The notes beneath the pieces are model-generated. The model was not told the origin of the DNA, did not search any database, and was given only the letters and a program-made list of their open reading frames with translations. A DNA stretch of 59,357 nucleotides from a virus. Location of the stretch: the IMG/VR virus record IMGVR_UViG_3300005836_000010; one strand, written 5' to 3'. Numbering within the stretch: the first letter of the stretch is position 1; each line of letters starts with the position of its first letter. The translations under genes were made by a program, and so were the position numbers. Shown here in pieces: positions 1 through 21,969 of the stretch.

Positions 1-120
1 AGCTCGACGCGATGGTGGCCGATGGGCTGATCAAGCCCGAGCTTCGCGATGCGCTCAACCGCAAGTACAAGAACTACGTGCCGCTGAAGAGCCTCGAAGA
101 CGAGGACGCGCACCTGGGCA
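1..120. repeat. Terminal overlap copy 1 (identical to 59238-59357); circular closure of a 59,237-bp genome
   Basis: Read directly: agctcgacgcgatggtggcc...gcgcacctgggca is present at both window ends; both copies lie in the same open frame. Confidence 0.95.
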
Positions 121-2144
121 TCGGGCAAGGCTACTCGATGCGGCCCACCGACATCAAGGAAGCGCTCGGCCGGCGCAGCCGCTCGAGCAGCCCGATCGCC
201 GCCAGCATGATGGACGCCGCGCGCGGCATCGTGCGCGGTGAGAAGGCGCGCGTCGATCAGTCGGTGTGGGAGTACGCGCAGAACAAAGACGCGCACGACT
301 TCGTCAAGCCGTACGACGAGAACAAGCCGCCACCCGAAGTGATGAAGAACATCAAGGGATCGGACGGCAAGGTAAAGTCGGTGGTCGACCCGAACAAGGT
401 GCGCGACTACACGCTGGATCTCATCGTCGATGGTGAGCCCAAGAAGGTCTTCATCCCTGATCAGCTGCTGCGCGATCAACTGAAGAAGATCGCGCAGACC
501 AATGACGTCGGTCCCTGGTTGGCGAAGATCGGCAAAGTCACCGGCACGGTTGGCCGGATGCTGACCGAGTTCAACCCGGCGTTCGTCGTGCCCAATGCTG
601 CGAAGGACGCGATCACCGCGGGTCTGCGCGCGAAGGCGCACGGGATCTCGCCAGCCAAACTGCTGGCCGACATTCCAGTGGCGTGGGGTGAGATCACCAA
701 CTACAAACTGGGTCGCAACACGCCGGGAGCGAAGGCCTACGAGGAGTTCCTGACCGCGGGCGGCAAGACGGGCGCCTACGGCGTGACCGACCTGAGCGAG
801 ACGCTGAAGAAGCTCGAGCACATGGGCGCCGACATCAGCGACACGAAGCACGCGTCGGGTGTCGTGGCGCGCAAGACCAAGCAGGCTTTCGGTGCGGCCG
901 CGCACCTCATCTCGAACATGAACGAGGTGATGGAGTACGCCACCCGCTTCGCTGCGTTCAAGCAAGCCCGAGCCACAGGCCAATCCGTCAAAGAGTCGGC
1001 GCGCATCGCGAAAGAGATCACGGTCAACTTCAACCGCTCGGGCGAGGAGAGCCGCAAGCTCAACGCCGTGCTGGTGTTCGCCAATGCCGCGCTCCAGGGC
1101 GCGCGCAACACCGTCGTCTACATGAAGCATCCGGCTGTGGTGAAGGGCATGCTCGGTCTGACAGCGCTCGGTGCGGCCGCACAGGCGTGGAACGAGAACA
1201 TGGGCGGCATGGACGAGGACACTGGCGAGTTGAACGCCAACACCCAGAGTGATGTCGTCGCCGACAAGAACCTGTCGCTGATGATGCCGAACTCGCGCAG
1301 CGGGCTCAAGATCCCGATGCCGCCCGAGTACGCATTCCCGTTCACGCTCGGACGTCGGCTGTATCGGTTGTTCTCTCAGGGCAACGTAGGCCGCGAGGCT
1401 ACCGGCATCGTTGGCGCTGCGCTCGATGCTGCACTCCCTGTGCGCCTGCCCGAGATCGGGCCACAAGGTGCGACGCTCTCGTCGCTCAAGGCTGTGGTGC
1501 CCACACCGGTGGCCCCGCTCGCAGATCTGTTGACCAACACGAACTACTTCGGTCAACCGATCGTGCCGGATCGGCATGACACGACGAGCCCTGCGCCGTA
1601 CTTCCGCTCGAGCCGGCGCACGACGTCGGAGTTCGCCAAGGACTTCTCCGAAGCGTTGAACACGGCGACCGGCGGCGACAAGATCAAGCCGGGTGGTTCC
1701 GAAAAGTATCTCGGTCCCATCGTGTCTCCCGAGGGCATGGAGTACCTCGTGGGCTACTACACCGGTGGCGTCGGCCAGATCGCGATGCAGTCGAAGAACC
1801 TCGTGAACGCTGCCACCAAAGGGGAAGACCTCGACATCAACAAGGTGCCGATCGCCAACCGCTTCGCGTTCCAAGAAGCGAAGAGCTACACGAGCCGCCG
1901 GTACCAGGAACTCAAACCTGAGTTCGAATACGCAATCGATTACGAGAAGAACGACCAATCGGCTAAGGTGGACCCGAAGGTCATGCGCGCGCTCGATGCC
2001 TACAAGGACTCTGAGCACGAGCTTCGCGGCCTGTTCAAGCAACTGAAGGGCGCCGAAGGCAACGAGCGCACGCAGGTAGAATCCGACATCAAACGCGCGC
2101 AATCCCGAGTCATTCGCGCCTACAACGGGCAACCGTCGCAGTGA
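1..2144 (+). CDS. C-terminal part of the ~1816-aa giant virion (polyvalent/ejection-type) protein; continues from 55931..59357 across the junction
   Basis: Track ORF 12..2144 is open back to base 1. The frame is continuous with the 55931 frame: (59249-55931) is divisible by 3, and 59249 corresponds to base 12. Confidence 0.85.
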   Translation, partial: LDAMVADGLIKPELRDALNRKYKNYVPLKSLEDEDAHLGIGQGYSMRPTDIKEALGRRSRSSSPIAASMMDAARGIVRGEKARVDQSVWEYAQNKDAHDFVKPYDENKPPPEVMKNIKGSDGKVKSVVDPNKVRDYTLDLIVDGEPKKVFIPDQLLRDQLKKIAQTNDVGPWLAKIGKVTGTVGRMLTEFNPAFVVPNAAKDAITAGLRAKAHGISPAKLLADIPVAWGEITNYKLGRNTPGAKAYEEFLTAGGKTGAYGVTDLSETLKKLEHMGADISDTKHASGVVARKTKQAFGAAAHLISNMNEVMEYATRFAAFKQARATGQSVKESARIAKEITVNFNRSGEESRKLNAVLVFANAALQGARNTVVYMKHPAVVKGMLGLTALGAAAQAWNENMGGMDEDTGELNANTQSDVVADKNLSLMMPNSRSGLKIPMPPEYAFPFTLGRRLYRLFSQGNVGREATGIVGAALDAALPVRLPEIGPQGATLSSLKAVVPTPVAPLADLLTNTNYFGQPIVPDRHDTTSPAPYFRSSRRTTSEFAKDFSEALNTATGGDKIKPGGSEKYLGPIVSPEGMEYLVGYYTGGVGQIAMQSKNLVNAATKGEDLDINKVPIANRFAFQEAKSYTSRRYQELKPEFEYAIDYEKNDQSAKVDPKVMRALDAYKDSEHELRGLFKQLKGAEGNERTQVESDIKRAQSRVIRAYNGQPSQ

Positions 2145-2469: not shown

Positions 2470-2750
2470 AAGAAGGTCTTAAGCGGATCCTCGAGGCTCT
2501 GTCGCCCACCGATTGGAAACGTGGGATTGCGATGATCATCTTGTGGGCATACGCCTACCAGTTGCTTATCTGGCCACTTTGGTTCAACATCGTCACGTTC
2601 ATCAATGCGGTTCACGGAACCTCTCTGCCCGCTCCGATCATCGTGCCGTGGGAACAGCTGATGGCTGGCACCACAACGCTTGCGACCATCGGCGGCATCC
2701 AGGCATGGCGTGACGGGAACGCAACTCCTGACGGAGCACCACCTCAATGA
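2466..2750 (+). CDS. Small multi-pass membrane protein (holin-like candidate)
   Basis: 94 aa, GTG start overlapping the upstream stop (GTGA); hydrophobic segments GIAMIILWAYAYQLLIWPLWF and TTTLATIGGIQAW. Confidence 0.55.
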   Translation: MKEGLKRILEALSPTDWKRGIAMIILWAYAYQLLIWPLWFNIVTFINAVHGTSLPAPIIVPWEQLMAGTTTLATIGGIQAWRDGNATPDGAPPQ

Positions 2751-3472
2751 AACGGCTACTCGTCCTAGCGCTTCTGCTCATCGCGCCGCTGGCGCACGCA
2801 TTCGACTGTCTACCCAAGACGGTCATCACCCCGAACGCCAGTGGCACGGTGCTGCGCTACGCGCAGGCCGACACAGGCATCTGGGTCAACTGGTGGTGTC
2901 CAGTTCCGCCGACGGGCACGCAGGATCCCACGAAGACGTGGTGGCGGCAGCAAGCCTGGGCTGCGCTGACGAAGTACCAAGCTGCAAACCCGAACCCGAT
3001 CAGCGCATTGACAACGATCGCGTCCGCCGCGGATCCTGTCGGTGCATTGACCGCAGCCGACAAAGCCAGCGCCGTGGTGCCGGCTGCTGGATCGGTGGAC
3101 GAGTACAACTACAAGACGCTGCTGTGGTCGGCCTGTCAGGCCCTAATCACTGCGCCGGTGGACCTTCCGAATCCGGATCCTATTTCTCCGACATATTGTG
3201 GCACGCAACCTGTGCAGCCGCCACCCGGTACCACCGACACTGTGTACATCGTATCGACCAACGGTTCATTGCCTACGCGGCAAGCTTTCGCTGCAACGCA
3301 GAACGCAGACGGTAGTTGGGCGCGCTCGATCACGAGCACAGGCAACGCAACAGTTGGCTCGACCTGTGACTGCCAAGCCATTCAGATCTTGCAGTTTGGC
3401 GCGAGGTTCTGTAAGGTCGCTGTTCCTGGCGCCACGACTCCGATGGTTGCCGGGTGTGCAGCCAAGAAGTGA
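2747..3472 (+). CDS. Secreted Cys/Trp/Pro-rich protein with Sec signal peptide, unknown function
   Basis: N-terminus MKRLLVLALLLIAPLAHA|F is a classic signal peptide; ATGA overlap with the upstream gene. Confidence 0.65.
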   Translation: MKRLLVLALLLIAPLAHAFDCLPKTVITPNASGTVLRYAQADTGIWVNWWCPVPPTGTQDPTKTWWRQQAWAALTKYQAANPNPISALTTIASAADPVGALTAADKASAVVPAAGSVDEYNYKTLLWSACQALITAPVDLPNPDPISPTYCGTQPVQPPPGTTDTVYIVSTNGSLPTRQAFAATQNADGSWARSITSTGNATVGSTCDCQAIQILQFGARFCKVAVPGATTPMVAGCAAKK

Positions 3473-3851: not shown

Positions 3852-3875
3852 GGGTGGCCAACGGCCACCCTTTTT
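3852..3875 (+). terminator. Rho-independent terminator closing the structural operon
   Basis: gggtggcc-aac-ggccaccc (8-bp GC stem) followed by ttttt. Confidence 0.8.
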
Positions 3876-3889
3876 CGTTGGGGAACCCA

Positions 3890-4504
3890 GTGCTGACCTT
3901 GACCCAGTTGATCGCGTGCGAAGTGAACCCATCCATCGCGCGCACGTTCGTCGATCCGCTCAACGCGACCTTCGATCGCTTCGAGATCACGACGGCACGC
4001 CGCATGGCAATGTTCCTGGCAGAGGGTGGTTTCGAGTCGGTCCACTTCACGCACCTCGAGGAGAACCTGTACTACAGCACTCCGATGCGGATTGCCCAGG
4101 TCTTCGGGTCGAAGTTCACCGGGTTAGCCGACGCAGCGCGATTCACCAAGAACCCACAGGGGTTGGCCAACAAGGTCTACGCCAACAAGAACGGGAACGG
4201 CGATGAGGCCAGCGACGACGGTTGGAACTACCGCGGCCGCGGGGTGTTCCAGCTGACCGGCAGAGCCAACTACAAGGCTGCTGAAGATGCGCTTGGAGTG
4301 GCGTACACTTCGACCCCAGAACTGGTGATCGAGCCCGAGCACGCATGCCTGACCGCAGGTTGGTACTGGACGTCGCTGAGACTCAACACGGCGGCGGACC
4401 AGGGTGATGTCGACTGGGCTACTCGATCGATCAATGGACGCGCGATGCTCGGGAAAGAAGAGCGCCGACTCGCGTACAGCAGCTACCTCACCGCTCTAAC
4501 CTGA
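3890..4504 (+). CDS. Glycoside hydrolase family 19 (chitinase-like) endolysin
   Basis: GH19 signature NYRGRGVFQLTGRANY. I moved the start to GTG 3890 (RBS ggggaa upstream) because the track start 3854 lies inside the terminator stem. Confidence 0.85.
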   Translation: MLTLTQLIACEVNPSIARTFVDPLNATFDRFEITTARRMAMFLAEGGFESVHFTHLEENLYYSTPMRIAQVFGSKFTGLADAARFTKNPQGLANKVYANKNGNGDEASDDGWNYRGRGVFQLTGRANYKAAEDALGVAYTSTPELVIEPEHACLTAGWYWTSLRLNTAADQGDVDWATRSINGRAMLGKEERRLAYSSYLTALT

Positions 4505-4513
4505 AAGGCAATC

Positions 4514-4783
4514 ATGGACACCCTTCTCTCCTTCCTGAACCTGAACGTCATCGGATCCCTCGGGATCGGTGGCGCCGTCGGCTTTGCCATCCGTGGCCTG
4601 CTCGACGCGCGCAAGGCCAACGAGGACCAGATCCTCATCAAGGTGGCCAGCGAAGCCCTGTCCAAGCTGGCGAAGAATCGCAAGCCGAACCAAGACCAAC
4701 TCGACGCCGCAGCCGCAGCCGCAGCCGCTGAAGAAGCGCAGATCAAGGCCCTGCAAGCGAAGGCCGCGTCGCTGCTGTCATGA
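4514..4783 (+). CDS. Single-TMD protein, holin/antiholin candidate
   Basis: 89 aa; N-terminal TMD VIGSLGIGGAVGFAI, charged C-terminus with an Ala8 run; sits between endolysin and spanins; ATGA overlap with the next gene. Confidence 0.5.
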   Translation: MDTLLSFLNLNVIGSLGIGGAVGFAIRGLLDARKANEDQILIKVASEALSKLAKNRKPNQDQLDAAAAAAAAEEAQIKALQAKAASLLS

Positions 4784-5232
4784 CGCTCGAGATCCGGTTG
4801 ATCCTGATCGCAGTCCTCGCAGTGGGGCTGCTGGCTGGGTTCAACCGTTTCATCGCCAGCGAGCGCGCAGCCGGTGCAGCCGAGTGCCGCGCAGCCCAGG
4901 CGAAGGTCGATGCGGCTGCAGCCGACCGCCACGAGAAAGCAGCACAGGAGATCACACGTGAGTCAGCAAAGATGGAAGCGAAGCGTGTGGACGATGCTCA
5001 GTCCCTCGCTGTTGCTGGTAGCAGGCTGCGCGACCGATATGCCGCAGCCATCCAGCCAAGCAGCAATCCCGCCTCTGCCGCAGTCGGCGCGCCAGCACCC
5101 GCGGCCCCCGTACTGTCAACCGACATGTTCGGAGCAGCTGAAGAAAGACTTCGATTCCTGGCTGCAGAAGCAGACCGCAGCCGAGACGAAGGAACCGACT
5201 GCGAGCGGCGTTACGACTCGCTGAAGGAGTGA
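4780..5232 (+). CDS. Inner-membrane spanin subunit (Rz-like i-spanin)
   Basis: 150 aa; N-terminal TMD LILIAVLAVGLLAGF, then a long Ala/Glu/Arg-rich periplasmic helix; contains an embedded lipoprotein ORF. Confidence 0.8.
   Translation: MTLEIRLILIAVLAVGLLAGFNRFIASERAAGAAECRAAQAKVDAAAADRHEKAAQEITRESAKMEAKRVDDAQSLAVAGSRLRDRYAAAIQPSSNPASAAVGAPAPAAPVLSTDMFGAAEERLRFLAAEADRSRDEGTDCERRYDSLKE
4994..5224 (+). CDS. Outer-membrane spanin subunit (Rz1-like o-spanin), embedded in the +1 frame of the i-spanin gene
   Basis: Internal ATG 4994 of track ORF 4874..5224 gives MLSPSLLLVAGC..., with a lipobox (LVAG|C) and a Pro-rich mature part; 76 aa. Confidence 0.8.
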   Translation: MLSPSLLLVAGCATDMPQPSSQAAIPPLPQSARQHPRPPYCQPTCSEQLKKDFDSWLQKQTAAETKEPTASGVTTR

Positions 5233-5235: not shown

Positions 5236-5418
5236 ATGGCATCAGGAAAGAACTGGATCGAAGGCCTGAAGAAGGGTGGCTTGCACAAGAGCCTGGGCGA
5301 GCCCGCCGGCAAGACCATCCCGAAGTCGAAGATCAAGGCCGCGGACAGCAAGCCGGGCAAGGTCGGCAGGCAAGCCCGCGCTGCTGAGACCCTGGCCAAG
5401 CTCAGACCGAAAAAGTAG
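5236..5418 (+). CDS. Small basic protein, unknown function
   Basis: 60 aa, Lys-rich; 3 nt after the spanin stop; its 3' end overlaps the convergent gene 5402..6130 by 17 nt. Confidence 0.5.
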   Translation: MASGKNWIEGLKKGGLHKSLGEPAGKTIPKSKIKAADSKPGKVGRQARAAETLAKLRPKK

Positions 5419-6130
5419 GCACGCCAGCCCGGCGCGCTGCGTCGAGCCAGACGTCATCGTGGGGCGCACCGCGCCAGCCTGGGAGCCATGGGCCACCCAG
5501 CGTGAAGTGCGCGATGCCGCGCCCCGCGTTTTCCAGCGCGCATTCCTGCTCACCGACGAGCCAGTTCCATCGGGCATCGAGCCTGCCGATCTCGTTGTCG
5601 TTGAGCCAGTAGAACCCATGCAGGTCGCGGCCAGGGCGCTCGTTGATGTCGCGCAGTGACAGCCGCCAGTTGGCTGGGTGCAGGCAGTCGAAGAGCATGA
5701 CGCTGGACCAGTTCTTGCGTCGATAGGTGGTCTGCTTCTGGTTGACCATCTTGTACTCACTGCTCGGTCGGTACTCGAGGTGCTGCACCACGTACACCGC
5801 GGCCCCAGGTTCGATCTCGTCGAGCATTCGTCGTGGGTCCTCTAGGAACACCACATCGCAGTCGGTGAAGAGCGCCCAGCGCTCCTGGCACAGCAATGGC
5901 ACCAGGAACCGGCTCACAGCGAACTCAGTTGACTTGGGCGCGTTGCTGACTAGGTCGTAGGCTTGCCCACCCCGCTTGTCGGTCACGCGCGTCAGTAGGC
6001 CCTGCGCCATGAGCTTGGACGCCATGATCAACTCAGATGACGTGGGCCACGCGACTATTCGATTCAGCGAGTCTTGAGCGACCATCGTGGCCGCATGCTC
6101 GTTGTGGTCGTACCCGATATAGATCTTCAC
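5402..6130 (-). CDS. GT-A fold glycosyltransferase, GT8-like (DXD)
   Basis: GTG 6130 start overlaps the upstream stop (GTGA); KIYIGYD...SRFLVPLL...ALFTDCDVVFLED layout resembles GT8/LgtC-type enzymes. Confidence 0.7.
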   Translation of the reverse strand: MKIYIGYDHNEHAATMVAQDSLNRIVAWPTSSELIMASKLMAQGLLTRVTDKRGGQAYDLVSNAPKSTEFAVSRFLVPLLCQERWALFTDCDVVFLEDPRRMLDEIEPGAAVYVVQHLEYRPSSEYKMVNQKQTTYRRKNWSSVMLFDCLHPANWRLSLRDINERPGRDLHGFYWLNDNEIGRLDARWNWLVGEQECALENAGRGIAHFTLGGPWLPGWRGAPHDDVWLDAARRAGVPTFSV

Positions 6131-6897
6131 CGTGCACCTTTCCAATACGCCTCTTCCCGGCGAAACTTCATGTCGATCCGGCGCGAGCGACCCATCCGCT
6201 TGCGCTCGTTTCCCTTTAGGTGATCCATCACCGAGCCGAGCGGACCATTGACGAATGGGTGACCGGTGTAGTGGAAGGCGCCTGACAGCGACGTCCACGG
6301 TACGTGCATGCGATCGACAGCTGCAGCGAGGGCATGGCAATCGGTCCAGTGATCCAGCTGGAAGAGCATGTCCTGGGTGTAAAGAGTCTCCCACGCTGCG
6401 AGCAGCCCAGGCGTCGATGGGTGGTTCATCTTGAGCATGAAGAACCCGGTCTCCGGGTACTTGTGGGAACGCCACAGCCACGCCAGCGCAGCGTTCTTGT
6501 CAAGCCACAACCGATCAAGGAACTCCTCGGTGACCGGTGAGTGCGTGATGACGTCAGCATCGATCCAAATCAACACATCGGCGGTGGTTCGCCGCGCTGC
6601 GTCGATGAACGCGGCGACCTTGTGGCTGAACCGCACCGCATCGAACAGCATGTTGTAGGGCTTGCCGTGGTCGATGCCTCTGCGCTTCGGGGTATCACCA
6701 TTGCGCGCTTTGAACTCCGTCAACCACTTCGGCAACTCACGTGCCTCGCTCGTCTGGAGATCGGGTTTGAACCCATCGTTGTACAGCACGAGCGGAATGC
6801 TGGCAGGCCAGAAGCGCTTGAACGTGAGAACCATCTTGCGACCATAGATCGCCCAACCCGTACCGTGGCAGGTGGTCACCACTTGGTGTGTCGTCAT
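6127..6897 (-). CDS. Putative nucleotide-sugar glycosyltransferase (DXD-type)
   Basis: Internal ATG 6897 overlaps the upstream stop (ATGA); motif VLIWIDADVI; 256 aa. Confidence 0.5.
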   Translation of the reverse strand: MTTHQVVTTCHGTGWAIYGRKMVLTFKRFWPASIPLVLYNDGFKPDLQTSEARELPKWLTEFKARNGDTPKRRGIDHGKPYNMLFDAVRFSHKVAAFIDAARRTTADVLIWIDADVITHSPVTEEFLDRLWLDKNAALAWLWRSHKYPETGFFMLKMNHPSTPGLLAAWETLYTQDMLFQLDHWTDCHALAAAVDRMHVPWTSLSGAFHYTGHPFVNGPLGSVMDHLKGNERKRMGRSRRIDMKFRREEAYWKGAR

Positions 6898-7583
6898 TGG
6901 GGAACCATCACGTAGTCGCCAGCCAGTATGTCGGCTACACGATAGCCGAGACTTTTTAGATATTCCACGCCACCCTGCGGCTTGAGACCGAACTTGCACG
7001 CCATGTCGCGCTTCTGCTCGATCACGATCGTCGGACGCCACCGCCGGATGGTTTGTTCAGCACCACGTGCGATCAACTCTTCGTAGCCCTCAGCGTCGAG
7101 CTTGATCAGATCGACGTCGCTGAACTCGAAGCTGTCGATCGTGCGACGCTCGACATTGGCGTCGGCGAACTCAGCCACGTGACCGGCAATATTGCGCCGG
7201 TCCTTCGCTTCGCTCAGGTAGCTGTCACCTGAAGCGTACAGGTTGCTGAGCATCGAAACGAAACCCGGCTCGTTACCGAGCGCCATTGAGTACAGACGAA
7301 CTCGCTCGTCCATCTCGACATTGCGCATCCAGCATTCGCGCAGTCGACCGACAGGTTCGAAGCACTCCACGTAATCGAAGCGATCCTGCAGATGGGTCGT
7401 CCACAGACCGATGTGCGAGCCCTGCTCGACGCAGCGCCGGAAGCTACTGCAGTTACGCAGCGTCGCTTCGATCTTCGGGTACTGGTAGGTGCCCTTGCCG
7501 TTGACGAAGTGAGCGTTCCTCGACATCCAGTCGATGAGTTCCTGCTCGGTGTCGGGCATCCAGATGCCCTGAAAATCCTTCAT
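6894..7583 (-). CDS. FkbM-family methyltransferase
   Basis: 229 aa; C-terminal VDLIKLDAEGYEELI...G is the typical FkbM motif region; ATGA overlap upstream. Confidence 0.7.
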   Translation of the reverse strand: MKDFQGIWMPDTEQELIDWMSRNAHFVNGKGTYQYPKIEATLRNCSSFRRCVEQGSHIGLWTTHLQDRFDYVECFEPVGRLRECWMRNVEMDERVRLYSMALGNEPGFVSMLSNLYASGDSYLSEAKDRRNIAGHVAEFADANVERRTIDSFEFSDVDLIKLDAEGYEELIARGAEQTIRRWRPTIVIEQKRDMACKFGLKPQGGVEYLKSLGYRVADILAGDYVMVPQ

Positions 7584-8104
7584 GGTGTCTCCACGAGAAA
7601 GAAGGGTGTCTCCAGCCCCATGCTGGAGCGCACCTCAGCGAACTTTTTTTCCCACCAAAGCACGGGGTGCAACGTGACGTGCAGGTTCACATCGCTGTCG
7701 GTGAAATTTTTCTTGGCAGGCCGGCTGCACACCGAAGCCCACACGGCTTTGCCGGCGAACATGAACAGTTCGCCGATGACGTCATCCACTTGGTCTTCGG
7801 GGATGTGCTCGAGCACATCACTGCACACGACCAGATCGAACTTCCCGTGCGGCCGCTCGTCGTGCGTCGGGAACGCCGGATCGTAAAGTCTGATATGCCA
7901 CCACTGCAGACCCCACGCACGGTGGATGCGGTGCGGCGCACGGTACTGATCACCTCGACCGCAGCCATAGTCGAGCACGCGCTGGACAGCGAACTTCTTG
8001 ATCAACTGCTTGATCTCGTCCACGTGCTTGAGGATGGCGAATCCAGGGAAGTGAATCCCCTCGGCAGCCATGGACACATACAGAGGGATCAGAGATTCAG
8101 TCAT
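7580..8104 (-). CDS. Class I SAM-dependent methyltransferase
   Basis: Motif I VLDYGCGRGD and DLVVCSDVLEHIP; ATG 8104 overlaps the upstream stop (ATGA). Confidence 0.75.
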   Translation of the reverse strand: MTESLIPLYVSMAAEGIHFPGFAILKHVDEIKQLIKKFAVQRVLDYGCGRGDQYRAPHRIHRAWGLQWWHIRLYDPAFPTHDERPHGKFDLVVCSDVLEHIPEDQVDDVIGELFMFAGKAVWASVCSRPAKKNFTDSDVNLHVTLHPVLWWEKKFAEVRSSMGLETPFFLVETP

Positions 8105-8676
8105 GGCGTGACTCTCCTGTAGTACCCAACCCACTCATCTTTGTACGCGGTCTCTGTGTGGTAAAGCTCGAATCCAACGCGCCCCATGGCAACGCCGATC
8201 TTGTGCTTACGCATATTGGAGCGCATGTCGAGGACGATGGGCAGAAGCTTGTCACATTGTGCTTGCGGTGGAAGCTTGATCACCACGTAAGTGGCGCAGG
8301 CAGCGAAGCGACGACACGAGGTGGTGGGATCACTCAGCTTGTGCAAGAAGGACAACATCGCGACGATGTCGTAGTTGCGTTTCGGCTCCCACACGTTGCC
8401 GTCGCCCACCTCGAAAGTGATCGGAAGGTCGCCTCGCAAAACGTTAGCGACCTCGACAGCCTGTGGTCTGATCTCGACACCGTGCACTGCGACGGCACCT
8501 GCTTTCGCCATCTCCACAGCTATAAGCCCCTCAGCACACCCCAAGTCAAGAACGGTCTTGCCCTTCACTAACGCCATGAGAGAGGTGAGCCCAGTCATCT
8601 GCTGATCGAGTGTGCGATCACCGGGCCGCGCTTCGTCTACGTGGTGCCAATGCTTGTGCGGTTTAGCCACGCCCAT
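8101..8676 (-). CDS. Class I SAM-dependent methyltransferase
   Basis: Motif I VLDLGCAEGLIAVEMA and acidic loop HGVEI; start uncertain (ATG 8676 or 8598). Confidence 0.7.
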   Translation of the reverse strand: MGVAKPHKHWHHVDEARPGDRTLDQQMTGLTSLMALVKGKTVLDLGCAEGLIAVEMAKAGAVAVHGVEIRPQAVEVANVLRGDLPITFEVGDGNVWEPKRNYDIVAMLSFLHKLSDPTTSCRRFAACATYVVIKLPPQAQCDKLLPIVLDMRSNMRKHKIGVAMGRVGFELYHTETAYKDEWVGYYRRVTP

Positions 8677-9410
8677 GCTTTCCCCTGCTTGATTTCGTCC
8701 AAAGTCCACTGATTATCCGCCAGGACGCGCAGTGCGTGTAGCCTTTGGTCCTGCGTCGGATCGGAAGAGAACATCCAACCGGCCAAAGCGTGCTGAGAAT
8801 CTGTGACCACGCTCACCCCTGCGACAACCGCCGTGATGGCGGCGGCTGAGGTGTGGGTCACCAAACAGGCAGCGCCTTCGAGGTCTTGCGGTAGTGTCTT
8901 GGCAAGCTCGGGTTTGTTGGACGACCATGGCCGGATCTTGATTTCTCGGTCCGGCCATGTTCTGGCACACAGATGCACTGTCTCGGAAATCCAGTCGCCT
9001 GAGTAGCCGATCGTCAGGTTCATGTGGGCATCCGACTGCGGCACGATCAGAACGTAGCCGGGATCATCGGTGCTTCGCCATGGCTTGATATCGGGATTCC
9101 CCCCGAAGATGGCGCGCAAGCGCTCACCGCTGGATGCTTCCTTCCCGTGATACTGCACAGCATTCCTAGTCACCCGGAAGTGGGTTTCGCGTGACGCGTC
9201 GAAGTACGAGTTGTCGATGAAATAGAAGGGATCCCCGCCGAGTCTCAGCTTGGTGTTGACGCTGCGCCAAGTGCCGACGTTCATTGAACCGATACCATAG
9301 AACACTGAAGAGTGTTCCCTGGCACCCATCTTTTTGGCGCCGTCGATGAAAGCTTGACACAGGTCAAGAGACTTGCGTTTGCCAGGAATGGGGTAGGCTT
9401 GCATCACCAT
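8637..9410 (-). CDS. KpsC/KpsS-like (Capsule_synth-like) single-domain glycosyltransferase candidate, paralogue A
   Basis: YVLIVPQSD...CLVTHTSAAAITAVVAGVSVV pattern; shares a C-terminal QW(T/H)(L/F)DEI motif with 9404..10213. Confidence 0.45.
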   Translation of the reverse strand: MVMQAYPIPGKRKSLDLCQAFIDGAKKMGAREHSSVFYGIGSMNVGTWRSVNTKLRLGGDPFYFIDNSYFDASRETHFRVTRNAVQYHGKEASSGERLRAIFGGNPDIKPWRSTDDPGYVLIVPQSDAHMNLTIGYSGDWISETVHLCARTWPDREIKIRPWSSNKPELAKTLPQDLEGAACLVTHTSAAAITAVVAGVSVVTDSQHALAGWMFSSDPTQDQRLHALRVLADNQWTLDEIKQGKAWAWLNRTSIGTT

Positions 9411-10213
9411 TTCGCATCTCCCAGGTTGGTCAGCATGCGAGCCAACGGCTCACCGGTGGCGATCTCATCGAAGTGCCATTGACCGTGTGATATCGTTTGC
9501 AGGGTTCGATACCGGTCTTCGATACCGATCGGTGGAGGGGCTTTCATCAGGCCAACATCGAACCGCCACGCCGCGCTCGAGCCGATCCAGTGAGGAGCGT
9601 CGTAGAAGACCGGCAGTCCTTCAACCAGGGCACGCACACCCGAACCGCTCGACCAGATGACGCAGGACGATGCTTTCTTGAAGTCGTCCGTCAGTGGTAT
9701 CTTGGCTGCAAAGTTGCCAGGATGCTGACGCAGCTTGGCCGCCATACCGGCGGCACTGATCTTGCGCCCTGTGCGCTCGGCCCACTGCGATGGACTCGCC
9801 ATCAAGGGGCTACCGATGCCGCGCTGCCCGCACACCAGAGCGTAACCATCGCGCACGACACGTGGCTGGATCTCGTAGCCGAGCTTGGTGAAGCGGTCTT
9901 CGTCACCGACAGGGAACCAGCCCGAGCCGTTGTGACCGTGCAGGCTCAACGCGTAGTAGGTCTTGTCGACCTTCTGCAGGTATCCGTTCTCGGCGACGAG
10001 CACGCTACCACCGCGGGCTTCCCACTCGGTGGCAGCGTTGTCGTCGGCGCCCTTCTTCCGGTTCCACAGAACCAGCAGATCTTCTTTGGTCAGGTTGATC
10101 TTGGTGCTACCGAACGGTTCGATCTTGTAGCCGTGTTTGGCCAGCATCTTCTCGAATGCGTCACGCCGGTAGAACGGTTCCTTGCGAATCGTCAGGACTG
10201 CTCTGCGGCTCAT
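9404..10213 (-). CDS. KpsC/KpsS-like (Capsule_synth-like) single-domain glycosyltransferase candidate, paralogue B
   Basis: YALVCGQRG...LRQHPGN...CVIWSSGSGVRALVEGLPVFYD resembles the GT-B nucleotide-sugar half of capsule Kdo transferases. Confidence 0.45.
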   Translation of the reverse strand: MSRRAVLTIRKEPFYRRDAFEKMLAKHGYKIEPFGSTKINLTKEDLLVLWNRKKGADDNAATEWEARGGSVLVAENGYLQKVDKTYYALSLHGHNGSGWFPVGDEDRFTKLGYEIQPRVVRDGYALVCGQRGIGSPLMASPSQWAERTGRKISAAGMAAKLRQHPGNFAAKIPLTDDFKKASSCVIWSSGSGVRALVEGLPVFYDAPHWIGSSAAWRFDVGLMKAPPPIGIEDRYRTLQTISHGQWHFDEIATGEPLARMLTNLGDAKW

Positions 10214-10844
10214 GGTTGGTCTCCAGGCAAGAGGTGAGTGAGGCTCGGGGCCAGCAGGTGAGTGCAGTGTCCACCGAGCAGTTGATGACTTCGCATCCGT
10301 GCAGCTTCAGATCCTTGGCGAGTGTTGCCGCCTTGTGGATCCACTCAGCGAACACCTGTGCCTGCACGCACGGTGATGGGTGATCGGGATGCCAGTGCTT
10401 CTCTTTCTTCGGTCCTAATTTCATATCGAATCCAACGAGCAGGATTCGACGGCTCCCGAACAGGTAGGCCATGTTGATGGCTTGGAATCCACTGTTGCCG
10501 TTGTTGTGAACGACACCGTCGAGTCCCAATCCAGGTCTGTTGGTGTTTTTGATCCAGCTGGTCTGGTACTGCTGCGCGATGGTTTGATGCCCACCCCACT
10601 TCTCACCTTTGAATGTCCGCTTGACTTCGAGGTGGTGGGCGCGCCACCAGAGGATGTCACCGGCGTACAGGAGATCAGCCCAGGGAAACAATCTGAACGT
10701 CGTGTTCACCGCGATCAGCTGGAACGGCTTACCGCGTACTCGTAGATGATTGAGATCGCCGACCGACGCCGACAGGCTCGGTCCGCTGGCGGCGATGACA
10801 GCTGTCTTGCCACGCCAGCGATTTAGCCACGGGAACTTGATCAC
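10161..10844 (-). CDS. DUF115 / MptE-like / Maf-like protein (putative glycosyl- or pyrophospho-transferase)
   Basis: AVIAASGPSL...LIAVNTT...NSGFQAINMAYLFG..ILLVGFDM matches the DUF115 layout as recalled; ATGA-type overlap with the SNF2 stop. Confidence 0.55.
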   Translation of the reverse strand: MIKFPWLNRWRGKTAVIAASGPSLSASVGDLNHLRVRGKPFQLIAVNTTFRLFPWADLLYAGDILWWRAHHLEVKRTFKGEKWGGHQTIAQQYQTSWIKNTNRPGLGLDGVVHNNGNSGFQAINMAYLFGSRRILLVGFDMKLGPKKEKHWHPDHPSPCVQAQVFAEWIHKAATLAKDLKLHGCEVINCSVDTALTCWPRASLTSCLETNHEPQSSPDDSQGTVLPA

Positions 10845-12268
10845 TCTCCCCTCCGCTTCATCGCGTCCATCAGAACTTCCTGAACCGATTTCTTAGTGTC
10901 GACCCGAATGATGACGTCTTCGTCGATCGTGTCTTCGGCAACGATGTGGTAGATCCAGGTGTTGCGGTTATGTCCGGCTTGGATCTGCCGGACGGGACCG
11001 ATGCGTTCGAAGATTTGCTGGCGGGGCTCGAGCGCCCACCAGTGGCTGAAGTAAACCAGGATGTTCCCGCCGTCCTGAAGATTAAGACCGTGACCAGCCG
11101 ACTGCGGGTGTGAAAGAAGTATGCTGATCTCTCCTCTGTTCCAAGCCGCCACTGTCTCCGGGTTAGTGTCCAACACCCGAGCTTGAGGGAATGCACGTTG
11201 TAGGCGAACCAAGTCCGATTTGAAGTGGTATGAGACCAGGACAGGCATGCCTGCAGCCTCTTCCACAACCGATCGGAGAGCTTCAATTTTTTCATCGTGC
11301 ACCTCTACCCAGCGCTTGGCCTTGGGGTGATCGTCGCTATTGACATCGGGATCGATGTACATCGCGCCGCTAGCAATCTGCAGGCATTTCAGATCGCGGC
11401 CCGCACTGCTAAACGCTTCAATGCCGTGCGTCTTCACCTCAGTGAAGAGTGCTTTCTCCATCTCACGGTAGTGCTTCCGGGCTTGCGGTGGGAGTGTCAC
11501 CGTGACCGTACGCACGATCGGTTCCTTTAGATCGAACCAGTCCTTCGGATCGAGTGTGAGGCATATGTCCTTCAGCAGGCCTTGAATCTCGGCTTGCGAA
11601 TGTGGGAACACGATGCGCTGGATGAACTTGCTGTGGTGACCCAGTGCTTGCGACACGCGCTGGAAACCGAACCAGCGGTTCTCGAACATGGAGTAGCTGT
11701 CACCAAGCCGGTGACCAGCATCGAGGAAGAACGTCTGACCCCACAGATCCTGCAATCCGTTGGGCGCCGGTGTGCCGGTGAGGTTGATCCAGCGGCGCGT
11801 CTTGCCCAGCGTGGCGTCGTACAGCGCGCGGGCACGCTTGCCGCCTTGCTTCGTGCGGAACGACTTGAGCCGTGTCGACTCGTCGGCAACCACAATGTCG
11901 AAAGGCCAGCGGCCCTCCAGCGTTTCCACGAGCCACTGCATGTTGTCGTAGTTGATGGCGTAGATGTCGGCCTTCTTGTTTGCGAGCGCGTCCATGCGCT
12001 CCTGCTGCGTACCGACGATCGGTTGGATCTTGAGATGAGAGAACTGTCGCCACTTCTTCACCTCATCGGGCCACGTGCTGCGGGCCACGCGCAGTGGCGC
12101 TAGCACGAGCGGCCGACGGATAGACCCCGACATCGACAGGCCATCGAGTAGGTACAGCGACGCACTCGTCTTGCCCATGCCCATGCCAGCCCACAACGCG
12201 CATCGCGCGTTCGCGATAGCGTGGCTGACCATCAACCGCTGATAGGGGTGGGGAACGAAATCACGCAC
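10841..12268 (-). CDS. SNF2-family DEAD/DEAH-box helicase
   Basis: Walker A GMGMGKT, DEAH-like VVADEST, LTGTP, C-terminal helicase motifs; 475 aa. Confidence 0.9.
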   Translation of the reverse strand: MRDFVPHPYQRLMVSHAIANARCALWAGMGMGKTSASLYLLDGLSMSGSIRRPLVLAPLRVARSTWPDEVKKWRQFSHLKIQPIVGTQQERMDALANKKADIYAINYDNMQWLVETLEGRWPFDIVVADESTRLKSFRTKQGGKRARALYDATLGKTRRWINLTGTPAPNGLQDLWGQTFFLDAGHRLGDSYSMFENRWFGFQRVSQALGHHSKFIQRIVFPHSQAEIQGLLKDICLTLDPKDWFDLKEPIVRTVTVTLPPQARKHYREMEKALFTEVKTHGIEAFSSAGRDLKCLQIASGAMYIDPDVNSDDHPKAKRWVEVHDEKIEALRSVVEEAAGMPVLVSYHFKSDLVRLQRAFPQARVLDTNPETVAAWNRGEISILLSHPQSAGHGLNLQDGGNILVYFSHWWALEPRQQIFERIGPVRQIQAGHNRNTWIYHIVAEDTIDEDVIIRVDTKKSVQEVLMDAMKRRGE

Positions 12269-12584
12269 GGGGCGGTAACCAATGATCGAGTTGTTCGAAG
12301 GTGCTGATCACGAGCACGATGTAGCCTGCCTGCACCATGCGCCCGTGTTCTCGCAACTGCGCAGGAGTTGGTTTGCCTCCGGGTGCTTTTGTTTCAACTA
12401 CCGGATGAAGTTCATGTAGCTGCAAAAAGCGCGACCGCGGGAGGAGTGCGTACGCCGAACTGATCGTGAACAAGCAGAACACATCAGGCGCATTGCGTCG
12501 ACCGAGCCACGCGCCTGCTCGGATTTCGCCGCCATACTCTTCGACGCGCTTCTTCAGTTCCTTGCGTACGTCACGTTCGGGCAC
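12261..12584 (-). CDS. VRR-NUC domain nuclease
   Basis: PD...(E)xK core: NAPDVFCLF ... VVETKAPGGKPTPAQ; typical partner of SNF2 in this replication module. Confidence 0.75.
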   Translation of the reverse strand: MPERDVRKELKKRVEEYGGEIRAGAWLGRRNAPDVFCLFTISSAYALLPRSRFLQLHELHPVVETKAPGGKPTPAQLREHGRMVQAGYIVLVISTFEQLDHWLPPRA

Positions 12585-12903
12585 GTTCCCACCTCCGAAT
12601 ACTGTTGACCGAGCGCGTCACGCACTCCAGATGGTCAGGGTTGCAACAGGCCTTCGCAATGCAGCTGCGATGATCGAGCGTCATGCCTTCAGGCAGCGGT
12701 CCGTAGATCGCTTCCCAAGTAATGATGTGACACCGGCGTTGCCGTGGTGTGCGCACCCCAGGGATGCGCCGACTGACGTAGCCGTAGCCATCCTTATCGA
12801 GGTTGCCACCAAAGAGCCAACACCCGTTCTCGTTCTGCCAGTCGAGCATCCCGACCTTTGACAGGACGCGCTCAACGAGACTGTGGTATCGGCGCAAGGC
12901 CAT
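12571..12903 (-). CDS. HNH endonuclease
   Basis: LDHRSC...CCNPDHLE...SVN HNH/Cys-box pattern; 110 aa. Confidence 0.8.
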   Translation of the reverse strand: MALRRYHSLVERVLSKVGMLDWQNENGCWLFGGNLDKDGYGYVSRRIPGVRTPRQRRCHIITWEAIYGPLPEGMTLDHRSCIAKACCNPDHLECVTRSVNSIRRWERART

Positions 12904-13225
12904 TCTTCACCCATCTGTGTATCGTGCGCTCCGGTACCTTCAACTCGTGCGCGATCGCTACACACTTCCAACCTTCACTGTGTAGCTTGACCACCCTGAT
13001 GCGCATGCTGTCGCGCTCGCGTGCACGCAGCCACTGTGCCATGCGATCGTTGCCCCAACCTTGGCTGTTGATGCCTTTCCATACTTCGATCGGAACCTCG
13101 ACCGTCTTGAACGTGGACCCGTCATCGCGGCGGTAGCGACGCATTACAAGACCGTGAGCGAGCACGCGCGTATCGAGGCATCGCGCACCGGTGCGGACGC
13201 GCAGCATACTGACGTTGCGGCTCAT
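12872..13225 (-). CDS. HTH DNA-binding protein
   Basis: ATG 13225 overlaps the upstream stop (ATGA); C-terminal GWKCVAIAHELKVPERTIHRWVK is helix-turn-helix-like. Confidence 0.6.
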   Translation of the reverse strand: MSRNVSMLRVRTGARCLDTRVLAHGLVMRRYRRDDGSTFKTVEVPIEVWKGINSQGWGNDRMAQWLRARERDSMRIRVVKLHSEGWKCVAIAHELKVPERTIHRWVKNGLAPIPQSR

Positions 13226-13461
13226 TCCGGCACCGCTTCGAATTCGTCGGGGATCGGGCAGACGTGCAGTTTGCCGGGCTCGAGGCTGAACAGCACCCAC
13301 TGTCCACCCTGCTGGCGCCAGCGCACGTCGGTGCTGTAGCAGCGATTGCACTGCACTGCCGGTGCTTGGTAGTGAGATCCTTCTTTACGTCGAGTGGTGT
13401 AGGGTTGGCCCTCCCCCTCCCAGTCGTTGTACAGATCACCGTCGAATTGGCTCTTGCGCAT
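13222..13461 (-). CDS. Hypothetical small Cys-containing protein
   Basis: 79 aa from internal ATG 13461 (1-nt TGATG overlap with the upstream stop); CNRC...VC pattern. Confidence 0.5.
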   Translation of the reverse strand: MRKSQFDGDLYNDWEGEGQPYTTRRKEGSHYQAPAVQCNRCYSTDVRWRQQGGQWVLFSLEPGKLHVCPIPDEFEAVPE

Positions 13462-16849: not shown

Positions 16850-17188
16850 TCAGAACGATCCGGGCTGGGCCACTGCGCGCGTCAGCGCCATCAGCCCTTC
16901 TTGGAAATGGGTGCGAGCGATCGCGGCCCAGCGCTCAGGCTGCGCCGCTTCGATGCGAGTCTGCTCGGGATCGACGGGGCCTTCTTCACCGGTCTCGTGG
17001 ATCGATTTGGCGCGAGCCTCCATGTCGTGCATGCGCGCCGCAGCCTTTTGCTCGCGAATGTGGTTGTTGACCACGATGCACAACGCCTGGAGATCCATCC
17101 CTTCGGACTTGATCTCGTTCATGAGCATGGCTTCCGACTCGCTGAGTTGCCGGTAGCCGATGATCTTGGGTTGCTGGAACGTCTCCAT
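16850..17188 (-). CDS. Hypothetical protein
   Basis: 112 aa from ATG 17188 (1-nt overlap with the upstream stop); the longer track ORF 16850..17692 is an out-of-frame extension over the nuclease gene. Confidence 0.6.
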   Translation of the reverse strand: METFQQPKIIGYRQLSESEAMLMNEIKSEGMDLQALCIVVNNHIREQKAAARMHDMEARAKSIHETGEEGPVDPEQTRIEAAQPERWAAIARTHFQEGLMALTRAVAQPGSF

Positions 17189-19452: not shown

Positions 19453-19653
19453 TCATTCCCTCCAGCGGTAGACCCGATCGCCTGTGTCGAACTCATCGCA
19501 GGTGATGAACAGAGTGCCAGTCGTGACATGAGGGAACAGGCCACCTTCCACAGGGACACCTGCTTCCTTCAACTTGATCATCACCCAGTTAGCGATGTGC
19601 ACGTCGTGCGCGAGTTCCCGCAGTTTCGCGGCGGTGAGACGGACTTCAACCAT
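19453..19653 (-). CDS. Hypothetical protein
   Basis: 66-aa ORF overlapping the DUF4406 gene's 3' end by 8 nt. Confidence 0.5.
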   Translation of the reverse strand: MVEVRLTAAKLRELAHDVHIANWVMIKLKEAGVPVEGGLFPHVTTGTLFITCDEFDTGDRVYRWRE

Positions 19654-19963
19654 GGTCGGTTGTCCGGAAGAAGTCGTTCCACGTGATGATCTTGATGCCG
19701 ACGCGATGCGCGACGTGCATCTCGAGGTGAGCGCCAGACGACACTTCCCACCCAGGCAGCATCATGATCGTGTCGCAGTCGAGCAGCATGCGCAGGTCAG
19801 CCTTCAGGCATTCCTGCCATGGCGTGCCGACGTCCGGGTTGATGTCGACCGGGTTCACCACCTCGAAGCTCAGGCTGCGCAGCTTCGCGGCGCAAGCGTT
19901 GAACAGAGGGAAGTTGTGGTCGGGCATCCCCGACATCGCTCCACTGATGTAGATGCGCTTCAT
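19646..19963 (-). CDS. DUF4406 (nucleoside 2-deoxyribosyltransferase-like fold) protein
   Basis: MKRIYISGAMSGMPDHNFPLF...VVNP...CDTIMMLPGWEVSSGA..E matches the DUF4406 pattern as recalled. Confidence 0.65.
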   Translation of the reverse strand: MKRIYISGAMSGMPDHNFPLFNACAAKLRSLSFEVVNPVDINPDVGTPWQECLKADLRMLLDCDTIMMLPGWEVSSGAHLEMHVAHRVGIKIITWNDFFRTTDHG

Positions 19964-19964
19964 A

Positions 19965-20818: not shown

Positions 20819-20924
20819 GAGATCTCCGGGCGAGGAAGAAAGGTGGGTCGTGCGCCGTTACTGCGACACCCCGGCGTGAAAGGAGGCCGGAACCGCTGGC
20901 CATGCCAGCGCACTTCCCATTGAA

Positions 20925-21922: not shown

Positions 21923-21935
21923 GACGATCGGGGTT

Positions 21936-21969
21936 GTACCAGTTGACCAGATGTCGTGTCAAGTGGTAC
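21936..21969. promoter_or_regulatory. Candidate operator in the divergent promoter region
   Basis: gtaccagttgac-N10-gtcaagtggtac (12-bp arms, 1 mismatch) overlapping a possible TTGACC-N18-TACGCT rightward promoter. Confidence 0.55.

Follow-up and report, generated by a model that had tools for sequence, protein, structure and literature searches.

The viral record IMGVR_UViG_3300005836_000010 from IMG/VR (59,357 nucleotides; hereafter the window, meaning the whole stretch of DNA that was analysed) is a phage genome of ~59 kb with about 61% G+C. Eight minus-strand genes with overlapping ends were located at positions 5402-10844, and are designated g1 to g8 in the direction of their transcription (Table 1). 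An earlier note on this sequence had described a cassette of eight co-directional genes, chained by stop/start overlaps behind an SNF2 helicase gene and encoding glycosyltransferases and methyltransferases, and this arrangement was confirmed with all eight genes at exactly the coordinates given there. Overlaps of 4 nt (GTGA/ATGA) were identified at the SNF2/g1, g4/g5, g5/g6, g6/g7 and g7/g8 junctions and one of 7 nt at g2/g3, whilst those of g1/g2 and g3/g4 extend over ~40-50 nt, or less if alternative start codons are used. No sigma-70-like promoter was found inside the cassette, the far end of which is formed by a terminator. The cassette genes are considered real because G+C content at their third codon positions is well above that at their second positions, and because every one of them has homologs, with the order kept, in dozens of independent viral contigs.

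Table 1. Positions of the cassette genes and of other features of the window
Feature	Position	Strand	Description
g1	10161-10844	-	Stand-alone Maf-type (MAF_flag10/DUF115) catalytic domain
g2	9404-10213	-	Beta-Kdo-transferase-fold (KpsC/KpsS/WbbB-like) protein; QRGIGS replaces QxxxD; HPG motif
g3	8637-9410	-	Divergent g2 paralog; Q125-S126; lacks the QxxxD Asp and the HP motif
g4	8101-8676	-	Class I SAM-dependent methyltransferase; VLDLGCAEG
g5	7580-8104	-	Class I SAM-dependent methyltransferase; VLDYGCGRG
g6	6894-7583	-	FkbM-family methyltransferase
g7	6127-6897	-	Putative GT-A glycosyltransferase; IDADVI; variable slot in cassette
g8	5402-6130	-	GT-A DXD transferase, GT8/Nucleotid_trans-like; TDCDVVF, later AHFTLGGPW; core module member
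Bidirectional terminator	5419-5437		Hairpin then T-run on both strands; ends cassette operon and convergent late operon
SNF2-family helicase	10841-12268	-	Pfam SNF2-rel_dom 3e-14, PHROG 62 2.6e-136; overlaps g1 by GTGA
TylF/Methyltransf_24 O-methyltransferase	28326-29117	-	Pfam TylF 2.1e-18; unlinked, early region, 17 kb from cassette
Terminase	37891-39378		Rightward structural module
Portal	40340-42625		Rightward structural module
Major capsid	44073-44999		Rightward structural module
Internal virion protein	47123-50131		Rightward structural module
Tail-fibre-like genes			Rightward structural module
Endolysin	3854-4504		Lysis-side gene
DUF2514 protein	4780-5232		Lysis-side gene
Kdo, 3-deoxy-D-manno-octulosonic acid; SAM, S-adenosylmethionine; GT, glycosyltransferase.

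The enzyme motifs quoted in the earlier note were all present in the cassette (Table 1), and its statement that the proteins lack membrane anchors was borne out, in that no transmembrane segment was detected in any of the eight (maximum 19-residue hydropathy <=1.7). Open reading frames (ORFs) of >=200 amino acids in the window, with the exception of 36943-37584 and 55820-59357, were scanned, most of them against Pfam and the rest against PHROGs or by sequence search of the PDB. Neither sugar-nucleotide synthesis nor export genes were identified amongst the ORFs scanned, again as had been claimed, and neither an integrase nor any further lysogeny gene was present in this set. The window and the related loci were likewise devoid of genes for flagellin or for nonulosonate synthesis.

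The g1 protein matched PHROG 4603 (5.4e-42) and scored 32.1 bits against the Pfam profile PF01973 (MptE-like/DUF115), just below the cut-off of 34.6, and many of its homologs carry a precomputed PF01973 assignment. A sequence search of the PDB returned nothing useful, NCBIfam returned no match, and an exact look-up in the contig index retrieved no entry, for which the GTG start of g1 is the probable reason. When an AlphaFold2 (AF2) model of the protein (predicted local distance difference test, pLDDT, 92.5) was compared with the PDB, the best fold match was the flagellin glycosyltransferase Maf (5mu5; E = 9.5e-7, query-normalised template modelling score, TMq, 0.61), and next came an archaeal kinase, MptE, and the human sialyltransferase ST8SiaIII; together with the PHROG match, this upholds the earlier assignment of g1 as a DUF115/Maf-like protein. 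With 227 amino acids against the 632 of Maf, g1 covers only part of the latter (target-normalised score, TMt, 0.25) and is without its flanking domains. From the modelled fold, g1 is predicted to be a transferase of ulosonic acids activated with cytidine monophosphate (CMP).

No Pfam, PHROG or NCBIfam match was obtained for g2 or g3, and a PDB sequence search with g2 was empty. A fold search, recommended for each of the eight proteins by the earlier note, nonetheless retrieved KpsC, KrkA and WbbB with g2 as it had Maf with g1: these three enzymes accounted for every one of the 27 top Foldseek matches of the AF2 model of g2 (pLDDT 93) in the PDB, with E values as low as 1e-7 and TM scores of ~0.5. 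The matches to g2 in BFVD comprised four Tetraselmis virus 1 proteins, two of which are named capsule polysaccharide biosynthesis, and a protein of phage CcrColossus. Alignment of the g2 and g3 families with hhalign yielded a probability of 99.7% (E = 6.9e-27), and by this profile comparison the two are genuine paralogs.

Retaining beta-Kdo transferases contain an invariant QxxxD motif, the Asp of which forms a covalent Kdo adduct, together with a Glu base and a His in an HP motif that protonates the CMP leaving group (PMC10148158, PMC9587256). In the E. coli CFT073 proteins the first motif reads QTFND (KpsC-N), QVEDD (KpsC-C) and QVYND (KpsS), in each case 38-42 residues before HP. The corresponding motif of the g2 family is QRG[IV]G[ST], located 34 residues before an invariant HPG (H164-P165-G166), such that the position of the catalytic Asp is occupied by an invariant Gly; no Asp or Glu was present in residues 130-143 of any member checked, including the 34%-identical gp452 of Caulobacter phage CcrPW. 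The g3 family has Q125-S126 without a conserved acid, and R160-x-W162 where g2 has HP, whilst the invariant E75 of g2, a candidate counterpart of the base Glu66 of KpsC or Glu158 of WbbB, is aligned to D66 of g3. Alignments of the g2 family with KpsC-N, KpsC-C and KpsS of E. coli by hhalign were weak and consistent with these motifs, the HP motif of g2 being aligned to H194-P195 of KpsC with a weak score (E = 0.034); nothing was obtained against WaaZ (GT73).

Hence the earlier description of g2 and g3 as a paralogous KpsC/KpsS-like pair holds for fold and for paralogy, but not for family membership. The two proteins share the KpsC/KpsS/WbbB fold and are not members of GT99 or GT107, because the catalytic Asp of QxxxD is missing from both and g3 is in addition without HP. 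As the nucleophile is missing, a double-displacement route is impossible, and g2 and g3 probably use a single-displacement, sialyltransferase-like mechanism.

Three of the remaining proteins were assigned with confidence to methyltransferase families, in accordance with the two class I enzymes and the FkbM enzyme claimed at the outset. The g4 protein matched Pfam Methyltransf_23, 25, 31 and 11, all above cut-offs, and is retained in nearly all related loci, whilst g5 matched Methyltransf_23 above its cut-off (1.9e-9) and PHROG 24759 (9e-21), and is homologous to gp449 of CcrPW and orf13 of phage D3. Both PF05050 (1.4e-13; 51.8 bits, cut-off 22.7) and TIGR01444 (4.2e-17; 62.9 bits, cut-off 37.7) were matched by g6, the gene for which is absent from L004-L006, the closest relative of the window amongst the related viral loci (numbered here with the prefix L).

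The two GT-A DXD transferases of the earlier note are present as far as their motifs are concerned, but the profile matches were below threshold, GT8-like for g8 and GT2-like for g7. The DXD motif of g8 is invariant (D90, D92) and is accompanied by a GT8-like H208-x3-G-G-P-W motif. The protein also matched PHROG 28018 (3e-42), and phages of Caulobacter, Synechococcus, Pelagibacter and Stenotrophomonas encode homologs with the annotation nucleotide-diphospho-sugar transferase. Across its family, Nucleotid_trans was detected in 6/33 members and GT8 in 4/33, all sub-threshold; hhalign against WaaO gave E = 0.08, and a PDB sequence search with g8 returned nothing useful. The family call for g7 was the weakest of the eight (GT2, E = 1.7e-3, below cut-off), and only a minority of related loci contained homologs of it: L048, L052 and two sets of contigs that are nearly identical within each set. 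No NCBIfam match was obtained for g7 or g8.

The cassette is not unique to the window. A total of 833 detectable relatives of the g2 family were retrieved, almost all on phage-sized metagenomic contigs, and a pattern scan of IMG/VR identified 55 viral loci. These share the gene order, a synteny for which the earlier note had advised a search. When the window proteins were mapped onto these loci, the order kept was g1, g2, g3, g4, g5, X, g6, g8. In 36 loci X is a GT9 heptosyltransferase-like protein of ~250 amino acids, the family of which aligned to E. coli WaaC with a probability of 80% (hhalign, E = 1.3e-5) and is also represented in CcrPW; in the window and a few relatives, g7 stands in place of this common GT9 gene. 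Further variation arises from added genes. Eight loci carry a 2-oxoglutarate (2OG) oxygenase-like protein with HxD and distal-His motifs (e.g. L054:12522-13142 and L003:13453-14208), for which PF11004, the KdoO-like family, was the sole Pfam match (5/6 distinct members, of which one exceeded the cut-off). Elsewhere the additions are TylF/Methyltransf_24 methyltransferases or, at L025:13958-14890, a radical-SAM/SPASM enzyme, and some cassettes, such as those of L003 and L029, are interrupted by HNH endonuclease genes. In the window a TylF-like protein is encoded at a distance from the cassette; it shares 49% identity with the product of the L039 gene that comes immediately after the g8 homolog, and the L003 cassette also contains a TylF gene; the window gene is thus a probable ninth member of the cassette, unlinked and acting in trans.

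Comparison with the near-identical L004-L006 revealed exchange. The DNA is 92-97% identical on both flanks, whilst window positions 6727-13354, aligned with L004:6850-12795, are only ~73% identical over a block that reaches from g7 through SNF2 to the small genes beyond it, and in which the FkbM gene is found in the window only. The segment from SNF2 to g7 has been exchanged between close relatives, because such low identity lies inside flanks that are nearly the same. The cassette is therefore regarded as a widespread mobile module with hundreds of carriers amongst environmental phages. A scan of bacterial genomes returned only two contigs of metagenome-assembled genomes (MAGs), both of which resemble binned phage genomes, with no cellular homologs and no firm host; a related 58-kb contig was binned with a Burkholderiales MAG.

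Most of the loci have the same polymerase-SNF2 backbone as the window, but the module was also found on unrelated backbones. In the Caulobacter jumbo phages CcrPW, CcrColossus, CcrBL9, CcrSC and Bertelyvirus, homologs of g1, g2, g3, g8 and g5 and a GT9-like gene stand in a row between tail protein genes and lysis genes. The module follows capsid, portal and fibre-like genes in L054, terminase and capsid genes in L050 and a repeat-containing fibre-like protein in L046 and L051, whilst in L056 it immediately precedes the terminase and portal genes. The claim that the cassette is fused to the replication operon is accordingly correct for the clade of the window and does not extend to other lineages; linkage to replication genes is specific to this clade, because elsewhere the module follows capsid, portal or tail-fibre genes.

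Reduced versions were identified in cultured phages. A three-gene set with a middle protein of 275-296 amino acids is encoded by D3, PAJU2 and Klebsiella phage Eowyn; in D3 and PAJU2 it consists of a Maf-like gene, a gene for a 275-amino-acid protein and a third gene, encoding a methyltransferase in D3, and lies amid head-tail genes. The Maf-like proteins of PAJU2 (ORF010) and Eowyn are annotated as 'structural protein'. We also considered orf12 of D3 as a relative of g2/g3, for which no detectable relation was found, only a faint likeness to the GT9-like family. In phage P1 (79592-82150), PmgO is Maf-like and PmgP weakly so, and both share a late operon with PmgQ, annotated as 'glycosyltransferase', behind a late promoter and C1-controlled operators. 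The pmg genes of P1 are non-essential by CRISPR interference (CRISPRi).

Within the window, the cassette is the last part of the replication operon and adjoins the point at which the late operon ends. The leftward early module is opened by a DUF932 protein gene (34734-35705, minus strand) and further encodes a primase, an exonuclease, a Gp2.5-like single-stranded DNA-binding protein (SSB), DNA polymerase A and the SNF2 helicase. An HNH endonuclease gene (12571-12903, minus strand) is present among small genes between those for DNA polymerase and helicase, and a 435-amino-acid protein with two helix-turn-helix domains (25329-26636, minus strand) may be an early regulator. A 112-amino-acid protein (16853-17188, minus strand), the gene for which is flanked by those for exonuclease and SSB, is 95.5% identical to the product of an L004 gene that carries the Pfam Acb2/Tad1 hairpin domain, and by this homology is likely to be a sponge for cyclic-nucleotide defence signals. 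At 19646-21983 (minus strand), genes for a DUF4406 protein (nucleoside 2-deoxyribosyltransferase-like), a protein with a MazZ-like dATP/dGTP diphosphohydrolase N-terminal domain and a 352-amino-acid protein adjoin one another; the sequence assignments of this trio suggest some purine-nucleotide chemistry. The 352-amino-acid early protein had no Pfam, PHROGs or PDB-sequence match. A Z-genome (PurZ) reading of the MazZ-like gene was rejected, in that this adjoining protein gave no match to adenylosuccinate synthetase. The scanned proteins without a family assignment are those of 20925-21983, 27219-27947 and 33225-33827.

Adjoining the lysis genes is a gene for a 241-amino-acid, Cys-rich protein (2747-3472, plus strand) with a clear signal peptide (MKRLLVLALLLIAPLAHA) and no family or PDB match, a 32%-identical homolog of which is encoded directly after the g8 homolog on the unrelated backbone of L050 (14375-15118). 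At the contig ends, the plus-strand frame of 55820-59357 is open to the right end, and 12-2144 (plus strand) encodes a 710-amino-acid C-terminal piece (PHROG 14770, with an LPD38 domain in L004); the two are therefore taken as one giant polyvalent virion protein gene across the contig ends, which makes it probable that the contig represents a complete, circularly permuted genome. Megablast searches against isolated phages found no DNA match, and more distant blastn searches matched the helicase gene only, the nearest DNA relatives of which are in Bordetella and Burkholderia phages.

The most likely function of the module is the assembly, from host donors, of a short, O-methylated and ulosonic-acid-rich glycan that resembles the inner core of lipopolysaccharide (LPS). 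The hint of ulosonic acids in the earlier note has since gained three independent lines of evidence, namely the Kdo-transferase fold of g2, the Maf fold of g1 and the KdoO-like and GT9-like genes of sister cassettes. The fold matches of g2 and these added genes suggest Kdo/LPS-core chemistry, and the latter also lend indirect support to CMP-beta-Kdo as the putative donor of g2 and g3. The endolysin and DUF2514 neighbours, together with the one Burkholderiales-binned relative, point to a Gram-negative host. Any Gram-negative host supplies CMP-Kdo, ADP-heptose and UDP-hexose (the latter two being adenosine and uridine diphosphate sugars), which would explain why no sugar-nucleotide synthesis genes were found amongst the scanned ORFs of the window.

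As to the acceptor, we favour late cytoplasmic glycosylation of virion proteins, at a probability of about 0.45. Of the candidates listed in the earlier note, a virion protein is the one favoured by gene context, the module having late or structural neighbours in at least five independent contexts; DNA is disfavoured by the lack of ThyA, TET and C5-methyltransferase genes amongst the scanned ORFs, and the host envelope keeps a minor share. That all eight proteins are soluble is in line with action in the cytoplasm. The block of ~73% identity, with gain or loss of FkbM, is the pattern expected of a diversifying module and fits a coat on the virion. Chloroviruses are a precedent for virus-encoded cytoplasmic glycosylation of virions, and mycobacteriophages provide another, for virion proteins (Freeman et al. 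2023, cited in PMC12619734).

The analysis established the folds and families of the enzymes, the synteny, the mobility of the module and the lack of membrane anchors, and from these observations we infer the donors, the order of steps and the acceptor as follows. The donors would be host CMP-Kdo, or another CMP-ulosonate, and UDP-hexose, with ADP-heptose in the common GT9-bearing versions. The first ulosonic acid would be placed by g1 on Ser/Thr of a phage structural protein, and the glycan would then be extended by g2 and g3, with the HP motif that is kept and a putative acidic base (E75 for g2, D66 for g3) taking part in catalysis. Branching sugars would be added by the GT-A enzymes g7 and g8, a GT9 enzyme taking the g7 slot in most relatives, before g4, g5, g6 and the unlinked TylF-like enzyme methyl-cap hydroxyl groups. 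Exposed proteins of the virion, whether of capsid, fibre or tail, would be covered by the product, the make-up of which differs between closely related phages. In its full form, the proposal is that a large and mostly uncultured group of phages of Gram-negative bacteria, along with the Caulobacter jumbo phages, make their own O-methylated Kdo/heptose oligosaccharide as a virion coat that mimics the LPS inner core on a protein, built by a previously unrecognised, nucleophile-less and probably inverting clade of the Kdo fold and a minimal Maf-type initiator; taken whole, this is a tentative and somewhat unlikely scenario.

Several observations weigh against a virion-protein acceptor. No Ser/Thr-rich tail or repeat is obvious in the structural proteins of the window and no acceptor was identified, nor do the cassette-bearing lineages have a structural protein in common, barring a short tail-fibre match in L047. 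In the window the cassette is co-transcribed with replication genes, not structural genes. The homology of g1 does not imply protein targeting, because g1 is without the substrate-binding domains of real Maf, and the relatives of the other enzymes (GT9, GT8, KdoO and KpsC/KpsS) normally use lipid-linked acceptors. The donor sugars are themselves predicted only from folds and neighbouring genes. In P1, pmgO and pmgQ are dispensable in the laboratory, and we know of no glycan on the P1 virion. Kdo and heptose have moreover been found on phage DNA (bioRxiv 10.1101/2023.12.21.572611).

The lipid-linked acceptors of the related enzymes lead to the possibility, which we consider unlikely, that the host envelope is remodelled. 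The substrate would be the lipid A-Kdo2 core or another lipid-linked precursor, reached by the soluble enzymes from the cytoplasmic side of the inner membrane, and the addition of Kdo, heptose, hexose and methyl groups would change the LPS core of the infected cell and bring about superinfection exclusion or keep progeny from sticking to debris. The set of KpsC/KpsS-fold, GT9, GT8-like and KdoO-like enzymes mirrors that of LPS inner-core and capsule-linker synthesis, and the missing anchors are no argument to the contrary, because the cellular counterparts are peripheral proteins without transmembrane helices. Also compatible are the basic nature of g1, g2 and g7 (isoelectric points of about 9.4-9.5) and the gene for the secreted Cys-rich protein that accompanies the cassette in the window and in L050. 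However, at least five lineages have the module in a late or structural operon, and LPS made so late would barely reach the cell surface; with a late promoter and C1-controlled operators in front of them, the P1 homologs would be off in lysogens. The known phages that convert LPS are for the most part temperate and rely on Gtr or Wzy-type proteins embedded in the membrane, whilst the scanned ORFs of the window include no integrase or lysogeny gene and no export or ligase component.

In the window's clade the cassette is transcribed together with the genes for DNA polymerase and SNF2 helicase and comes straight after them, which is in favour of DNA hypermodification, in which a methylated oligosaccharide on a modified base of the phage genome would protect it from restriction or further defences aimed at nucleic acids. 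Kdo, heptose and di-/tri-saccharides are placed on 5-hydroxymethylcytosine (5hmC; bioRxiv 10.1101/2023.12.21.572611), and poly-arabinose on 5-hydroxycytosine (5hoC; PMC13326640), by phage glycosyltransferases with a relation to LPS enzymes. The window also encodes a MazZ-like deoxynucleoside triphosphate (dNTP) diphosphohydrolase domain, a DUF4406 protein and early proteins without assignment, and several cassette proteins are basic, although isoelectric points do not discriminate between DNA, lipid and protein targets. Every known route of DNA glycosylation needs a ThyA homolog, or a C5-methyltransferase with a TET-like enzyme (PMC13326640), and a DNA acceptor is disfavoured because no ThyA homolog, TET/JBP dioxygenase or C5-methyltransferase was found amongst the scanned window ORFs. 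The module travels with capsid and tail genes in other lineages. Furthermore, P1 and D3, which carry reduced versions, are to our knowledge not known for glycosylated DNA, and we know of no precedent for O-methylated DNA glycans or for DNA transferases of the Maf or KpsC fold. Modification of DNA is thus judged distinctly unlikely.

The least likely explanation is a soluble product or sink (a free methylated oligosaccharide, a modified nucleotide-sugar or a drain of CMP-Kdo/ADP-heptose, weakening the outer membrane before lysis or interfering with host defence), for which the lack of an evident acceptor gene, the lysis genes that border the cassette in the window, CcrPW and L003-L009 and the idea of sugar-donor sequestration discussed by Pyle et al. 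(bioRxiv 10.1101/2023.12.21.572611) can be adduced, but which has no precedent and would need far fewer than 8-9 specialised enzymes, 3-4 of them methyltransferases; a kept gene order with variable tailoring enzymes is, moreover, typical of the assembly of a defined structure.

Should the full proposal of a Kdo/heptose coat be correct, no Kdo-based system of protein glycosylation would have been described before it, nor any virion glycosylation system in phages that infect Gram-negative bacteria. Glycosylation of virions by the module, if it takes place, would extend phage self-glycosylation from a few actinobacteriophages to a broad range of environmental phages with Gram-negative hosts. Kdo or other ulosonic acids, heptose and methyl caps would constitute chemistry not previously seen on viral proteins. 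Virus-encoded glycosylation as such is already known; the enzyme repertoire is new and the sugar chemistry probably so, and the literature searched contained no description of the module, of the g2/g3 family or of what PmgO, orf7 of D3 or the genes of the Caulobacter phages do. Stability of the virion, adsorption, binding to decoys and the immune recognition of therapeutic phages could all be influenced by a coat of glycan. For enzymology, g2 and g3 are of interest in that the rare beta-Kdo-transferase fold is kept with the nucleophile of double displacement replaced. The other acceptors would be new as well, DNA as a hydroxymethylase-independent route to DNA glycosylation and LPS as an instance of LPS-core editing by lytic phages. 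Direct testing is possible, since Caulobacter phages that carry the module are in culture and reduced versions of it exist in P1 and D3.

Amongst known systems, chlorovirus PBCV-1 (A064R and partners) resembles the module in using several cytoplasmic viral glycosyltransferases and methyltransferases to build a heavily O-methylated glycan on its major capsid protein, independently of host pathways. It differs in being a eukaryotic giant virus with N-linked, neutral-sugar glycans and enzymes unrelated to those of the cassette. The systems of mycobacteriophages Che8, Corndog and Myrna likewise employ soluble phage glycosyltransferases, with methyltransferases in some genomes, that act in the cytoplasm on host donors; they decorate capsid and tail proteins and are accessory and variable between relatives, as is the module. 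According to PMC12619734, glycosylation in those phages has been demonstrated experimentally, whereas for the window it is predicted from genes, and their hosts are Actinobacteria and their enzymes ordinary GT-A/GT-B hexosyltransferases; ulosonic acids are absent, as are enzymes of the Maf type, the KpsC fold, GT9 or the KdoO-like kind.

Phage clusters for DNA glycans also combine multiple glycosyltransferases, draw on the host sugar-nucleotide pool including Kdo/heptose, and are often near replication genes, as in the window (bioRxiv 10.1101/2023.12.21.572611; PMC13326640). They always include, however, a ThyA homolog or a C5-methyltransferase with a TET-like dioxygenase, which makes the hydroxyl handle, and use T4 beta-GT-like or GT-A DNA transferases, none of which were found amongst the scanned ORFs of the window. 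Seroconverting phage systems for LPS (Gtr/Wzy/O-acetylase) depend on integral-membrane components and expression in the lysogen, neither of which is seen for the cassette. Also related are pmgO-pmgP-pmgQ of P1, orf7/orf12/orf13 of D3 and ORF010-012 of PAJU2, reduced late or structural modules that contain homologs of g1 (and in D3 also of g5), without the g2/g3 pair, g8 or the additional methyltransferases.

At the level of single enzymes, the Maf flagellin glycosyltransferases (Magnetospirillum, 5mu5) and g1 have in common the MAF_flag10 core fold, which is related to sialyltransferases and for which CMP-nonulosonic acids are the donors expected; in contrast to Maf, of about 630 amino acids, the 227-residue g1 is without the N- and C-terminal domains thought to bind flagellin and has no flagellin or pseudaminic/legionaminic acid synthesis genes nearby. 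KpsS/KpsC (GT107) and WbbB (GT99) share with g2 the same unusual modified GT-B fold; the Gln and HP motifs probably occupy the same structural positions, and a conserved acidic residue in the N-terminal domain of g2 may correspond to the Glu base. Unlike these, g2 and g3 are single-module proteins of ~260 amino acids with neither a membrane-association region nor a Pfam Capsule_synth match, and they are phage-encoded with no capsule export genes nearby. The module as a whole parallels LPS inner-core assembly (WaaA, WaaC/WaaF of GT9, WaaO/WaaJ of GT8, and KdoO), which is carried out by soluble or peripheral cytoplasmic enzymes of the same families, presumably from the same donors. It departs from that pathway in having no GT30 WaaA, in the capsule-linker/WbbB fold of its Kdo-type transferases, in its multiple methyltransferases and in being encoded by phages, in late or structural contexts.

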